From the IMG/VR virus record IMGVR_UViG_2585427780_000001: a DNA stretch of 13,691 bases; one strand, given 5' to 3'. The notes beneath the pieces were generated by a model. It made no database searches and had not been told where the DNA came from. It saw only the letters and a program-made list of their open reading frames with translations. Positions 4,882 through 13,691 of the stretch are shown piece by piece. A program made the position numbers and the translations under genes. Each line of letters begins with the position of its first letter. Position 1 is the first letter of the stretch. The DNA comes from a virus (taxonomy: Duplodnaviria; Heunggongvirae; Uroviricota; Caudoviricetes).

Positions 4882-5203
4882 AACGCACACCTCCGGAAAT
4901 ACCTTCTCCAAGATGCATCAGTTCTTCGTCCGTTCGCTCCGGTATCCCGTTCTCTTCCGGTAAAAGGCTGAAATCAGCCACCGCAGCATCACTGCTGCCG
5001 GACACCATTCTCACGATCAATGCCTTCAGCGAGGCAAACTGCGCATCCATCCACACATCACTGAAGCTCTGCATCCGGAAATAATCGCCCCACTCACCAA
5101 GCTCAGTGGCCGACATTTCCGACAGCATCCGCCGCCAGTCTGCCCGCCGGAACTCCCGGGCAAGCCGCATGACAAACTGCATTTCCCGCGTCAGGACTTT
5201 TCC
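4853..5203 (-). CDS. T: T portion of tail assembly chaperone gpGT, reached by programmed -1 frameshift from G
   Basis: ORF 4853..5182 is in the -1 frame relative to G. That frame is open upstream to a stop at 5218-5216 and overlaps the last codons of G. Sequence GGAAAAG (5203-5197) lies 1 codon before the G stop, where lambda has its G/GT slip site. Its 3' end overlaps the H start by 29 nt. Confidence 0.7.
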   Translation of the reverse strand, partial: GKVLTREMQFVMRLAREFRRADWRRMLSEMSATELGEWGDYFRMQSFSDVWMDAQFASLKALIVRMVSGSSDAAVADFSLLPEENGIPERTDEELMHLGEGISGGVRYGPDSQPGH

Positions 5204-5577
5204 GGCGTCAGCGCCTCATGCTCATCATCCCCGGCATTATCAATGGCCCCCATACCGCTCAGCGACAGAACCATCTCCGCCCCCGCACCCAGGGCATCAT
5301 ACGACCATGTTGTAATAACGGATGCGCAAAGCGTCTCTACATCCTTAGACTGATCCGCATTCCACAGTGAGCGGGAAACCAGCCAGGCATTGATATCCAT
5401 CCCCATCCGCAGAAAAGCAATCTGTCGTTCAGCCTCCGGCAGTTCTCCCTCCCCGGCATCAAACTTTGCCGTTCGCTGCTGAACAAACGCCAGATATTCA
5501 ATTCTCTGCAGCCCGGACAGCTCACTGAGCACCACGGACTGTTTTTCATAATTAAACGTGCCCTGTTTCAGAAACAT
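5191..5577 (-). CDS. G: Tail assembly chaperone G, about 128 aa
   Basis: ORF 5191..5619. Chosen start is ATG at 5577-5575 (MFLKQGTF..., like lambda gpG MFLK...) with GGAG 6 nt upstream; a second ATG lies at 5580. The ORF-track start at 5619 is TTG and would overlap the upstream terminator hairpin. Contains SELSGLQRIEYLAF, like lambda G SELSALQRIEHLAL. Confidence 0.75.
   Translation of the reverse strand: MFLKQGTFNYEKQSVVLSELSGLQRIEYLAFVQQRTAKFDAGEGELPEAERQIAFLRMGMDINAWLVSRSLWNADQSKDVETLCASVITTWSYDALGAGAEMVLSLSGMGAIDNAGDDEHEALTPEKS
5197..5203 (-). promoter_or_regulatory. Candidate -1 programmed ribosomal frameshift heptamer G GAA AAG (G to GT)
   Basis: Minus-strand sequence ACG CCG GAA AAG TCC TGA ends gene G. 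Shifting -1 at GAA AAG gives GGA AAA GTC CTG ... which continues into the T frame. The lambda site is G GGA AAG (established knowledge). Confidence 0.55.
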
Positions 5578-5593
5578 CATGTTCTCCACCTGC

Positions 5594-5617
5594 AAAAAAG
5601 CCCCGGATAACCGGGGC
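5594..5617 (-). terminator. Rho-independent terminator-like hairpin between V and G (GCCCCGG-UUAU-CCGGGGC followed by U6)
   Basis: Plus 5600-5617 gccccggataaccggggc preceded by aaaaaa (5594-5599). On the minus-strand transcript this is a perfect 7-bp GC-rich stem, a 4-nt loop, then UUUUUU, sitting 20 nt after the V stop. Confidence 0.6.
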
Positions 5618-5637
5618 AAATGATGAGTATCGTCCTG

Positions 5638-6381
5638 TTAACCTGCGGCGCTGACAGCCACCGCAGCCACGGCCACAAAATCGCCGTCAGAAGTCATGCC
5701 CACAATGCTGACACTGCCCTGCTTCACGCCTTTCACCGTGGCCACAAGCCCGTTCAGGGTCACCGTGGCAGTCTGTGGATCTGTCGAATGTACACTGATC
5801 GCTTTGTCACTGGCTCCGTCAGGTTTTACTGTAAAGGTCAGCGTGGTGGTTGCTCCCACTTTTACACTGGCAGATGCTGGTGCCACCGTCAGCCCGGTAA
5901 CGCTCACTGTTTCAGTGCCTTCCTCTGCCAGATGCGGACGCCCCACACCGCTGATTTTCACTGTGCGGGTCATCACGTCTTTTGAGGCAATGGTTTTACC
6001 CAGTGAGCTCAGCCAGCCACGGAAAACATCAACAGTGCCGTTGGGATATTTGATACGAAACGCGCAGACTTCACCGGAGTCGAACAACTGAACCAGTTTT
6101 TTCTGCCCGCTGTCACCCGGACGCCAGGCCAGCGTCGCCGAAGTATCACCGACGGATTTCTGCCCCTGGGTTGTCGTTTTCCAGTCTGCATCTTCATCAT
6201 CGAGATAAGTGTCATCTTCTGCATCAGCGGTCATTTCGCCAGGTTGCAGATCCTTCACCATCGCAAGACGCAGCCAGTCAGTGTCCGATAAAGGGTTCGC
6301 AAACGCATCGCCCTTGCCGGTGTACATCCAGAACGTCGTTCCCGCACCTTTCGTTTTTGCCAGTGGATTTGGTGTGGTCAT
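5638..6381 (-). CDS. V: Major tail tube protein V with C-terminal Ig-like (Big_2-type) domain, 247 aa
   Basis: ORF 5638..6387. ATG at 6381-6379 is preceded by AAAGGAGGTG; the ORF-track start at 6387 is GTG. Translation MTTPNPLAKTKGAGTTFWMY...YLDDEDADW...NGTVDVFRGW matches lambda gpV motifs, and the C-terminal Thr/Val/Ser-rich segment is typical of the gpV Ig-like domain. Confidence 0.9.
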   Translation of the reverse strand: MTTPNPLAKTKGAGTTFWMYTGKGDAFANPLSDTDWLRLAMVKDLQPGEMTADAEDDTYLDDEDADWKTTTQGQKSVGDTSATLAWRPGDSGQKKLVQLFDSGEVCAFRIKYPNGTVDVFRGWLSSLGKTIASKDVMTRTVKISGVGRPHLAEEGTETVSVTGLTVAPASASVKVGATTTLTFTVKPDGASDKAISVHSTDPQTATVTLNGLVATVKGVKQGSVSIVGMTSDGDFVAVAAVAVSAAG

Positions 6382-6392
6382 TGCCACCTCCT

Positions 6393-7972: not shown

Positions 7973-8015
7973 AACTGTCTCCGCACAGCCCCGTTCAGGG
8001 GCTGATTTCAGGTAC

Positions 8016-8035
8016 AAAAAAAGCCCTTACGGGCC
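8016..8035 (-). terminator. Weak terminator-like hairpin after the capsid gene (GCCC-GUAA-GGGC followed by U7)
   Basis: Plus 8023-8034 gcccttacgggc preceded by aaaaaaa (8016-8022). On the minus transcript this is a 4-5 bp GC stem with a GNRA-type loop and then UUUUUUU, 23 nt after the capsid stop. A second, 7-bp hairpin (plus 7986-8004, CAGCCCC-UGAAC-GGGGCUG) follows. Confidence 0.4.
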
Positions 8036-8058: not shown

Positions 8059-10017
8059 TTACGCCGTACATTTCACCAGACCGCGGTGATCAACTGGCGC
8101 GACACCGGCGTCAATACGCACTTTCGTTGTCACGCCATCCACACTGAAGCCCTCCATCTGATCAATATATGGCGTATCCACACCGTTGAGATAAGCCACT
8201 TCAATCGTATCGGAGCCTTTTGACGCAGCCAGGTAGAAGGTGGTCTGGCTGTTATCATCAAGACGAGGCTCTGCAATAACGGTCGCAAAATCTTTCACCG
8301 GGTTAATAATACCGGCGTTAATGTCAGCCCCCTTGACACTTGAGGAGCGAATGACCTGGTTAGCAACAGACTCCATCGCCGTCGGTACCAGTACGAACGC
8401 AGGACGAATATTCAGATGACGCTCCCCCTCTTTCTGAACGCGCATCAACTGGCGGGCTTTATCCAGCGATGCCACGTCCATTGCAGCGCTCTCCAGTACG
8501 TTTGCATGTTTCGCTTTATCGAACAGACTTACATTATCTGTGGAGATTTTCGGGTTAGACGTCAGAATGGCATAAACCAGATCGGCAATAGTGGATTTCG
8601 CCGCACGGCCCAACTTCATCGGGACATCGGTCAGCATATTCAGATAATCATTGATAATGGCCTGACGGGTGATACTGAACAGCTCGCCATAGGTCGCCAG
8701 TGCAATAGTGGCCTGTTTATCTCCGGTGGTGACGTATTTATATTCCGCCCCTTCACGCACCTGACGCAGAGCACTGAAGCCCCCCATACCCACACGATGG
8801 GCAATTTTAAAATCAGACAACTGACCTGTCCGCGTCCACTGTTCATAGGTTTCAGGGGCATCTTCCCAGCCCTGCAGAATGGCTTTGTTCGCAACATCCA
8901 GCAGAATATTACCGAAGTCAGACGTACTGTGTGTGAACGCCGCACCGACCATCTGCATCGGGTTATAACTGGAAACCCCAATACCCCGTTCAGTCAGTGA
9001 CATACGGGCATATTCACGCAGGGTCATCCCGTTGTAGACATTATCACGTTCGGTTTTTTCAAATCCGGCACGCGCCATCAGCGCCTGGCGGATCCCGTCC
9101 CCCACAAAATTACCGTTACCGGCATAAATATGAGCCGGGGGATTTTTATTGGATGGCGTGGACTCGCGCCCCATCTCGTTCAACAGCTTTTCGCGGGCCT
9201 GCTCCAGCGAACATTCAGGATCGGCAAGACACTGAGCCTGCAGCGTCTGATAACGCCCGCCAAACATGGCAAACAGATCATTAATACCGTTTACACGCGC
9301 TTTTTGCTCTGCCAGTACCTGCGCACGGATGCTGTTTTCATCCACCACGGGTGCTGCTGCCTGCACTGGCGTCCGGGAGGCTTCAGGTTCATTATCCTGT
9401 ACGCGTGGAGCACTGTTGCGTGGCGGAGTAATCATGTTTCGAATGGATTCCGGCATCTTTTTAAATTCCTCTGTACGTTTTGACTGAATACATGCCATTG
9501 CCTTAACGGCTGGCGTTACCTGATCAGCAAATCCATGTGCCAGACATTCGGCACCGGACATCCAGGTCTCATCCGCCAGCATGGCAGCAATTTCATCGGT
9601 GGTTTTCCCGGTTTTCTGTGCATAAGCGGGTAACAGAACCGCCTCAACTTTATCGAGCAGGTCGGCATAGGTGCGCATGTCCTCCGCATCACCGCCCGTA
9701 AAGCCAAATGGTTTATGAATCATCATGAAGGTGTTTTCCGGCATAATGACCGGGTTTCCCACCATCGCAATGACCGACGCCATTGATGCCGCCACACCGT
9801 CGACATAAACGGTAATGGACGCACCATGTGTTTTCAGCGCATTAAAAATGGCGATGCCTTCAAAGACATCGCCACCCGGTGAATTGATATGGAGATTAAT
9901 GTGGGTGATATCGCCCAGTGCATTCAGATCACTGATAAACTGCTTCGCTGTAACACCCCAGAAACCAATCTCGTCATAAATATAAATATCCGCGTCACTC
10001 TGGTGACCAGCCTGCAT
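8059..10017 (-). CDS. Fused prohead protease (ClpP-like) - scaffold - major capsid protein, about 652 aa
   Basis: ORF 8059..10278. The first ATG after the portal stop is at 10017-10015 (MQAGHQSDADIYIYDEIGFWG...); earlier in-frame starts would overlap the portal gene out of frame. The N-terminal part looks ClpP-like (INSPGGDVFEGIAIFNA...ASMASVIAM), the middle is Ala/Gln/Glu-rich, and the C-terminal half looks like a phage major capsid protein. Confidence 0.85.
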   Translation of the reverse strand: MQAGHQSDADIYIYDEIGFWGVTAKQFISDLNALGDITHINLHINSPGGDVFEGIAIFNALKTHGASITVYVDGVAASMASVIAMVGNPVIMPENTFMMIHKPFGFTGGDAEDMRTYADLLDKVEAVLLPAYAQKTGKTTDEIAAMLADETWMSGAECLAHGFADQVTPAVKAMACIQSKRTEEFKKMPESIRNMITPPRNSAPRVQDNEPEASRTPVQAAAPVVDENSIRAQVLAEQKARVNGINDLFAMFGGRYQTLQAQCLADPECSLEQAREKLLNEMGRESTPSNKNPPAHIYAGNGNFVGDGIRQALMARAGFEKTERDNVYNGMTLREYARMSLTERGIGVSSYNPMQMVGAAFTHSTSDFGNILLDVANKAILQGWEDAPETYEQWTRTGQLSDFKIAHRVGMGGFSALRQVREGAEYKYVTTGDKQATIALATYGELFSITRQAIINDYLNMLTDVPMKLGRAAKSTIADLVYAILTSNPKISTDNVSLFDKAKHANVLESAAMDVASLDKARQLMRVQKEGERHLNIRPAFVLVPTAMESVANQVIRSSSVKGADINAGIINPVKDFATVIAEPRLDDNSQTTFYLAASKGSDTIEVAYLNGVDTPYIDQMEGFSVDGVTTKVRIDAGVAPVDHRGLVKCTA

Positions 10018-10063
10018 CCTGAACCAGGAATTATTCTTCGGACTGGTCGTCGGTGTACTGCGG

Positions 10064-13371: not shown

Positions 13372-13691
13372 GGTAATGACTCCAACTTATTGATAGTGTT
13401 TTATGTTCAGATAATGCCCGATGACTTTGTCATGCAGCTCCACCGATTTTGAGAACGACAGCGACTTCCGTCCCAGCCGTGCCAGGTGCTGCCTCAGATT
13501 CAGGTTATGCCGCTCAATTCGCTGCGTATATCGCTTGCTGATTACGTGCAGCTTTCCCTTCAGGCGGGATTCATACAGCGGCCAGCCATCCGTCATCCAT
13601 ATCACCACGTCAAAGGGTGACAGCAGGCTCATAAGACGCCCCAGCGTCGCCATAGTGCGTTCACCGAATACGTGCGCAACAACCGTCTTCC
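13372..13691 (-). mobile_element. IS1 insertion sequence, partial (about 320 bp of about 768 bp; continues beyond window end)
   Basis: 13372 onward reads GGTAATGACTCCAACTTATTGATAGTGTTTTATGTTCAGATAATGCCCGATGAC..., which I recognise as the IS1 terminal inverted repeat and adjacent sequence. It contains the 3' end of insB. Confidence 0.9.
13387..13691 (-). CDS. insB: IS1 transposase InsB, 3' partial (C-terminal about 101 codons; 5' part beyond window)
   Basis: Minus-strand frame translates ...[100 protein letters not shown], matching the IS1 InsB C-terminus. The frame is open to the window edge. Confidence 0.88.

Follow-up and report, generated by a model that had tools for sequence, protein, structure and literature searches.

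A canonical intrinsic terminator module between the V-like major tail tube gene and the G-like gene in the late operon of a lambda-type prophage

The window, i.e., the whole 13,691-nt stretch of viral DNA that was analysed, carries between its V-like major tail tube gene and its G-like tail assembly chaperone gene an element that is confirmed, as far as sequence can do so, as a textbook rho-independent (intrinsic) terminator module on the coding strand. We propose that this V-G element probably acts as a leaky intrinsic terminator and 3'-end stabiliser which favours V over G, T and H, and that Q-modified polymerase would read through it. The V-G terminator is already known, in that public records of near-identical phages annotate it, and annotators have placed stem-loops behind the genes of the most abundant structural proteins before.

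All long open reading frames (ORFs) in the ORF list for the window lie on the minus strand, and the operon runs on that one strand in the order terL, portal, protease-capsid, cement, FII-like, Z, U, V, the hairpin, G, T, H, M, L and K. The V-like gene (5638-6381, minus) was identified by its match to Pfam Phage_TTP_12 (E = 9e-67) together with a C-terminal Big_2 domain, and its homologues are labelled major tail protein in the mEp460, Ayreon and O157:H7 records. A start at the ATG at 6381 agrees with mEp460 and with PGAP (the mechanically drawn ORF reaches a GTG at 6387), and the stop codon is the TAA at 5640-5638. The G-like gene (5191-5580, minus) was assigned from Pfam Phage_TAC_2 (E = 1.8e-39) and from annotations in relatives; Pfam also identified T (Phage_tail_T) after G and U (Phage_tail_U) upstream of V, as well as a ClpP-protease/capsid fusion in the ORF at 8062-10020. 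A preliminary description of this DNA had placed the hairpin directly after major tail gene V and inside an operon. The Pfam assignments of V and G bear out the former, and the latter agrees with the presence downstream of G, G-T, H, M, L and K, which are needed for tail assembly. The same description gave the length of the spacer as 60 nt, which holds if G starts at the second of its tandem ATG codons (5580-5575), i.e., at 5577, but not if it starts at the first, at 5580, where the spacer is 57 nt long. The first ATG is the one used in mEp460 and the second was chosen by PGAP in an O157:H7 prophage with an identical spacer, while G homologues elsewhere start with MFLK.

The coding-strand sequence of the spacer is TAA-CAGGACGAUACUCAUCAUUU-GCCCCGG-UUAU-CCGGGGC-UUUUUU-GCAGGUGGAGAAC-AUGAUG. 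A linker of 20 nt (5618-5637, minus), read directly from the sequence, keeps the hairpin away from the V stop codon, just beyond the footprint of a terminating ribosome. The hairpin is made up of a 5' arm GCCCCGG (5611-5617), a UUAU (TTAT) tetraloop (5607-5610) and a 3' arm CCGGGGC (5600-5606), and the stem is adjoined without a gap by a U6 tract (5594-5599), all on the minus strand; the two arms were delimited by sequence, terminator scan and fold, the loop by sequence and fold, and the U-tract by sequence and scan. The T6 is followed by GCAGGTGGAGAAC and then by the ATGATG at 5580-5575. Six nucleotides past the U-tract is a GGAG (5584-5587, minus), which from its spacing to the start codons is the putative Shine-Dalgarno sequence of G. 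The perfect 7-bp GC stem, UUAU loop and U6 that had been noted beforehand on the coding strand were thus recovered by sequence, scan and fold alike. The accompanying check of folding energy gave -15 to -16 kcal/mol, with a predicted -15.0 kcal/mol for the isolated hairpin and -16.2 kcal/mol when three and six flanking bases were included, at which length the structure accounted for 99% of the ensemble (z = -3.95 against dinucleotide shuffles). No T-run follows the hairpin on the opposite strand, and the element is therefore one-directional.

Larger folds of the region were not clearly better than those of shuffled sequences (z = -1.09 for 76 nt and z = -1.97 for 57 nt). Two long-range pairings were considered and rejected, i.e., one of CAUCAU in the 5' flank with the AUGAUG starts of G, and a G.U-rich one of the 5' flank with the G Shine-Dalgarno sequence; both occurred in minimum-energy folds but were absent or marginal in centroids. 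In an ATGATT variant, the start-codon pairing loses one pair without compensation, so that long-range pairing is not supported by sequence variation either.

A canonical intrinsic terminator has a stem rich in G+C, approximately 5-14 bp long, which closes a loop of 3-8 nt and is abutted by a run of U. At the V-G junction we found the stem and loop, the abutting U-run, a non-coding position on the transcribed strand beyond the ribosome footprint, and an occurrence beyond that expected by chance. The hairpin ranked first in the terminator scan of the window and, when the search was restricted to perfect stems of 7 bp or more that include six or more G-C pairs, close a loop of 3-8 nt and are followed by 7 bases of which at least 6 are T, it was the sole site on either strand of the whole window. 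The mean number of such sites expected per window was 0.01, as estimated from 300 dinucleotide-preserving shuffles, against the one that was found. The window scan detected no promoter-like site after the hairpin.

An Rfam 15 search of the whole window at gathering thresholds yielded no match. At permissive settings the best scores were for asX2 (19.8 against a threshold of 70 bits, on the opposite strand) and RyhB (19.5 against 55), and two prophage sRNA models, AsxR (16.5 against 63 bits) and AgvB (14 against 56), were likewise below threshold. The asX2 and RyhB alignments cover the terminator hairpin module only, and the other sRNA matches on the minus strand end in the U-tract. Homology to AsxR, for which a likeness seen by eye had beaten simple shuffles, was rejected on its Rfam score, which lies under that of the generic match to the RyhB terminator. 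The sRNA-17 of mEp460-like prophages was also considered and is another element, sitting in an intergenic region of more than 1 kb.

These searches bear on the idea that a stable sRNA, derived from the 3'-UTR of V and bound by Hfq, is released from the end of the V message and acts in trans on host or phage transcripts. All of the sub-threshold Rfam matches are to sRNA terminator modules and, in published accounts, a terminator hairpin with U6 is described as the module that Hfq binds on sRNAs, and the lambdoid prophages of EHEC as rich in short Hfq-bound sRNAs, one of them derived from a late-operon terminator. We nevertheless regard such an sRNA as extremely unlikely, given that no Rfam family reached threshold, that the sequence leading up to the hairpin has no evident conserved segment of seed type, that the flanks are not conserved in the related loci of Gifsy-1 and Citrobacter, and that the window scan showed no promoter-like site nearby.

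The window is approximately 98% identical to mEp460, cdtI and Ayreon, and 1.3 kb spanning V-G is 97-99% identical in 17 phage records, including Tritos. At the V-G junction, mEp460 (JQ182728.1) marks 8751-8774 as a 'rho-independent terminator' and Ayreon (MF807953.1) marks 8742-8782 as a terminator; in each of the two records the protease-capsid gene is followed by a marked terminator as well, and in Ayreon so is the gpI-like gene. The element and its junction are the same as in the window, and nothing of substance differs. The Ayreon spacer differs from that of the window at one flank base and the mEp460 spacer at four positions, one of which is a C->T change in the stem that gives a G.U pair. 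The terminator features of mEp460 and Ayreon are computational and were entered by independent annotators, and the window copy lies in a prophage with an IS1 in terL and an amber codon in H. The N15 record (AF064539.1) lists stem-loops as 'putative rho-indep. transcription terminator' after genes 7, 8, 13 and 20, i.e., after the decoration, major head, major tail and gpI-like genes. The N15 hairpin after the major tail gene shares with the V-G element its position before the G homologue and the pattern of a stem-loop following an abundant gene; however, its sequence (CGGGGC-GCGA-GCCCCG) forms an unrelated stem that starts 4 nt past the stop codon and has no U-tract, and it may work differently. 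Our literature search returned general precedents and predicted terminators in other phages, and no study in which a terminator behind a V gene of lambda type had been tested by experiment.

Of 5426 complete E. coli genomes, 1825, about a third, contained a match of at least 95% identity to a 141-nt query that spans the spacer, at 1975 places in all. A dispersed repeat of the REP/BIME type was rejected as an explanation, the sequence being present at a median of one place (maximum three) in each E. coli genome that has the spacer, and invariably within this prophage setting. Of 80 near-identical IMG/VR loci, 63 share the spacer of the window letter for letter, as does the O157:H7 prophage. The stem varied among these 80 loci at the two pairs nearest the loop and nowhere else: nine loci have G->A, three have C->T, which leaves a G.U pair, and one has C->A. 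The five G-C pairs at the base of the stem were invariant, and the T-run was T6 or T7 wherever the spacer was intact; T5 occurs in Shigella and other E. coli variants. Further afield, Gifsy-1, whose V is 77% identical, and a Citrobacter prophage (locus L102) keep the GCCCCG/CGGGGC stem in flanks that no longer align, and their T-runs have decayed to TTCTATGG and TTTGCGGG, respectively. No compensatory change was seen in any homologous hairpin, the 80 loci being 98-100% identical and Gifsy-1 and Citrobacter keeping the same stem bases.

To survey the junction more widely, we used a profile of the V N-terminal domain with one genome per species, which returned 80 loci across the Enterobacterales plus several lambda contaminants. 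These loci were de-duplicated by sequence and not by phylogeny, so that the counts which follow are indicative only. Among 67 distinct 60-nt sequences following the V stop codon, 40 had no hairpin and a short spacer with a ribosome-binding site only, as is seen in lambda, ev243, phi80, mEp213 and Stx phages, where a spacer of 10-15 nt holds a ribosome-binding site and no hairpin. A further 16 of the 67 had a hairpin only, which started 4-5 nt past the stop codon in 11 of the 16; these have 4-nt loops, several of them UUCG or GNRA (GCGA, GAAA, GUGA). The remaining 11 of the 67 had a hairpin with a T-run, defined as at least five T in the next 8 nt; all but one of these hairpins start 17-23 nt from the stop codon, and at least five unrelated stems are represented (GCCCCGG, GGCUCC, AAAGCCCC, GCCACA and AGCAGCG). 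They were found in prophages of Escherichia, Kluyvera, Klebsiella, Ewingella, Providencia and Serratia. When 71 distinct loci were divided into 100-nt bins over approximately 3.4 kb, the bin just after the V stop codon contained 30 perfect hairpins with stems of 6 bp or longer, and in 12 cases a T-run of at least five T came next, whereas every other bin contained 0-13 hairpins (mean about 5), with a T-run in 0-3 (mean about 0.2). The position of the hairpin is thus conserved and its sequence is not, which argues for a function at the RNA level and against both chance and a DNA-binding palindrome. A palindrome acting as DNA, i.e., as a protein-binding or recombination site, was rejected for the further reason that the T-run is strand-specific.

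The same survey speaks to the possibility that the hairpin is a neutral relic of mosaic evolution, i.e., a terminator left behind by the gain and loss of a moron at a recombination-prone module boundary and functionless now. Such a history would fit the presence or absence of the hairpin among otherwise homologous V-G junctions, the insertion of a KilA-N/P63C gene between the V terminator and the next genes in Providencia, and a deletion junction inside the hairpin loop of one relative (L045). It does not sit well with a stem that has stayed the same from the window group to Gifsy-1 and Citrobacter in flanks too divergent to align, with the recurrence of unrelated stems at the same spot in many genera, or with the conservation of the spacer region in the 1825 E. 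coli genomes and the restriction of stem variants to loop-proximal positions in the 80 near-identical loci, and we consider it very unlikely.

Two features separate the T-run hairpins from those without a U-tract. Firstly, the 11 distinct sequences with five to seven T right after the stem, on at least five unrelated stems, are far in excess of what is seen elsewhere in these loci; that such T-runs repeatedly follow unrelated stems implies that the U-tract has been repeatedly gained or kept. Secondly, the T-run hairpins lie at the 17-23 nt from the stop codon that is typical of real terminators, whereas the hairpin-only elements mostly lie at 4-5 nt, which suggests from sequence and spacing that the two are different devices. 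Both features count against a purely post-transcriptional stabiliser, in which almost no polymerase would stop under Q, the hairpin would serve as an exonuclease barrier or as an insulator between the translation of V and G, and the U-tract would be incidental. We hold this reading to be somewhat unlikely, although it would account for the U-less hairpins at the same junction in 16 of the 67 distinct sequences, often with UUCG or GNRA tetraloops, and for the retention of the GCCCCG/CGGGGC stem in Gifsy-1 and Citrobacter L102 despite a decayed T-run; in addition, Q-type factors bypass intrinsic terminators.

Within our preferred reading of a leaky terminator that also stabilises, a stabilising component appears at least as plausible as termination because of the many U-less hairpins at the junction and the decayed U-tracts of Gifsy-1 and Citrobacter. 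The hairpin, with its stabilising or structural role, would accordingly have been kept more consistently than termination across the relatives, which suggests that termination itself may not be the selected property. The preliminary description had suggested a partial terminator or a 3' stabiliser through which V gains over the genes behind it and which antiterminated polymerase can pass; the recurrence of hairpins at exactly the V-G junction in unrelated lineages is consistent with such a role and lends it partial support. Since lambda, phi80 and Stx phages have no hairpin here, the element would be a dispensable modulator and is not required for correct V:G stoichiometry. A broader and highly speculative notion, to which we give little credence, is that the V-G junction of lambda-type tail modules is a general post-transcriptional control point at which devices can be exchanged, some loci having a true terminator that begins 17-23 nt after V ends and others a tetraloop hairpin that begins at 4-5 nt and has no U-tract, and that the terminator form might also release a stable, trans-acting, Hfq-binding fragment of the V 3'-UTR, comparable to other sRNAs that derive from E. 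coli prophages.

Several loci in the survey are of interest in their own right. A second kind of V-G hairpin, which lacks a U-tract, was recorded within 40 nt of the V stop codon at 12 loci (L085, which is N15, L087, L103, L104, L106, L120, L122-L125, L127 and L155). Its G-C stem is 5-7 bp long and begins at 4-7 nt from the stop codon, and its loop has 4 nt. It stands directly before a ribosome-binding site of the CCGGAG type, its loop is UUCG or GNRA in 7 of the 12 and, in N15, the 5' arm can alternatively pair with a CCCCGG beside the ribosome-binding site; this second kind may control the translation of G rather than transcription. In two Providencia loci (L163 and L165, approximately 2007-2980), a gene of 255-277 aa with KilA-N and P63C domains follows the V terminator hairpin and, after about 150 nt of structured spacer, occupies the place where G usually starts; no G homologue was located further downstream, and the gene looks like a moron-type insertion. 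Locus L045 (IMG/VR UViG_2778261668_000001, approximately 2270-2290) has a deletion junction within the loop of its V-G hairpin, GCCCCGGTT|TACCGATATC..., past which the sequence resembles, by eye, the C-terminal part of the J tail-tip protein. If this match by eye holds, G through I and most of J would have been lost and the palindrome would be the deletion endpoint.

Two further prophages, from Serratia and Symbiopectobacterium (L172 and L173), have hairpins in the first 80 nt past the V stop codon. In L173, a terminator-like hairpin starts from the stop codon itself (AGCAGCG...CGCUGCU followed by U7) and a second hairpin, GCCCCGCG-UA-CGCGGGGC, comes after it; L172 has the same first hairpin, and approximately 160 nt of extra sequence split the second stem. 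Finally, a number of contigs (L130-L143, L153, L167 and L171) carry a V gene and V-G spacer identical to those of lambda. They are short, often of low coverage and come from assemblies of Neobacillus, Oceanobacillus, Kitasatospora, Pseudomonas, Shewanella and others, and are most likely lambda DNA contaminating unrelated assemblies.

A sister hairpin of terminator-like form (GGCCC-GUAA-GGGCU with a T-run; 8016-8035, minus) was found by scan, sequence and fold after the protease-capsid fusion gene (stop codon 8061-8059), which encodes the other highly abundant virion protein. It has the same design as the V-G element and is annotated in mEp460 and Ayreon. Between this capsid terminator and the cement-protein gene (ATG at 7972-7970) sits another hairpin, delimited by sequence and fold, which has no U-tract (CAGCCCC-UGAAC-GGGGCUG; 7986-8004, minus). 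The 83-nt spacer after the protease-capsid gene folds better than its shuffles (z = -2.35).

The way in which the V-G element would work can be set out as follows. RNA polymerase that lacks the phage Q-type antiterminator would halt at the hairpin, whereas Q-modified polymerase would mostly continue into G, G-T, H, M, L and K, with a minority of transcripts ending at the element. Release typically occurs 7-9 nt past the stem base, and transcript 3' ends would for this reason be expected at approximately 5595-5591. When read-through RNA is cut downstream, a hairpin of -15 kcal/mol would shield the upstream portion against 3'-to-5' exonucleases, so that termination and exonuclease blocking would both lead to a surplus of V-ending over G-T-H message. 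A tail contains about 200 V subunits, and the downstream proteins are catalytic or present in few copies; a surplus of V message would fit this difference in demand. For the head, the sister hairpin after the capsid gene would play the same part. A Q-like antiterminator would drive the late operon in phages of this type. Q proteins are described as processive antiterminators that bypass intrinsic terminators, and if Q keeps the hairpin from forming in the RNA exit channel, there could be next to no termination in lytic growth. A Q-like 'late gene regulator', similar to the Q of the Qin prophage, is annotated in mEp460. The window itself includes neither the antiterminator nor the late promoter, its operon is interrupted by IS1 at terL, and the genomes of lambdoid phages are mosaics.

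The late operon of lambda, with its tR' and Q antitermination, has the same layout of terminase, head and tail genes, and the relative mEp460 has a Q-like regulator; lambda's own V-G spacer, however, is 15 nt long and has no hairpin, unlike that of the window. This difference is relevant to a further alternative, i.e., that the element insulates against non-antiterminated transcription, blocking stray or read-in expression of tail genes in the lysogen or in early infection, with no role in late stoichiometry. The V-G element does have the full anatomy of a strong terminator, and several terminators are spread along the late operons of mEp460, Ayreon and N15, as would be expected of a design for passage by Q only. 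An insulator does not predict, though, that the terminators are distributed unevenly and stand specifically after the capsid, decoration and tail tube genes, nor would lambda be expected to do without one at its V-G junction; we judge this explanation unlikely.

A graded operon of the kind we favour has counterparts in other phages. T7 has the terminator T-phi after its major capsid gene 10, and phiX174 similarly has terminators in its structural operon. T-phi acts on T7's own RNA polymerase and not on a Q-modified host polymerase; to our knowledge, neither phiX174 nor LUZ7 makes use of Q. Stabilising hairpins or terminators also follow the genes of major subunits in bacterial operons, such as the REP element of malE-malF, Rhodobacter puf, and papA and fimA in pilus operons. 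In malE-malF, puf, papA and fimA, as would be the case for V, a stable hairpin lies 3' of the most-needed cistron and more message for the major subunit results. The V-G element differs from the malE-malF REP in that it occupies a median of one place per E. coli genome that has it and carries a canonical U-tract. In T7 and LUZ7, expression is likewise graded along the operon by partial read-through, both phages being documented cases of leaky terminators with a balancing effect.

The copy in the window belongs to a prophage that looks defective because an IS1 truncates terL and H has an amber codon. The IS1 (13372-13691, minus; Pfam DDE_Tnp_IS1, E = 5.7e-48) is inserted in terL, its right end ...GTTGGAGTCATTACC lying at 13372, and what is left of the terL ORF begins to match the Pfam ATPase profile at position 124 of 247, i.e., the insertion removes roughly the first half of the ATPase domain, so that packaging is probably defective in this prophage. 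In the tape measure gene H, codon 127 is an in-frame TAG (4503-4501, minus) where mEp460 has CAG; this stop was absent from all 31 related loci with the same preceding 30-mer, and the amber codon is either a nonsense mutation or an error of sequencing. The terminator of this genome has probably been inherited along with a late operon that is now decaying, and it may be a relic here.

The V-G element is an ordinary, long-recognised design, and for the window itself it has little significance beyond good annotation. Given the defective state of this prophage, its function would best be studied in intact relatives; Term-seq data exist for O157:H7 Sakai and could settle the question cheaply if Sakai has a prophage that carries the spacer. 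More generally, one long transcript must yield hundreds of copies of the capsid and tail tube proteins and few of the chaperone and the tape measure, and terminator-like hairpins after abundant genes have long been noted as a means of grading expression. The occurrence across lineages of a canonical terminator, a U-less tetraloop hairpin or nothing at the same junction offers a natural series that separates termination from RNA stabilisation.
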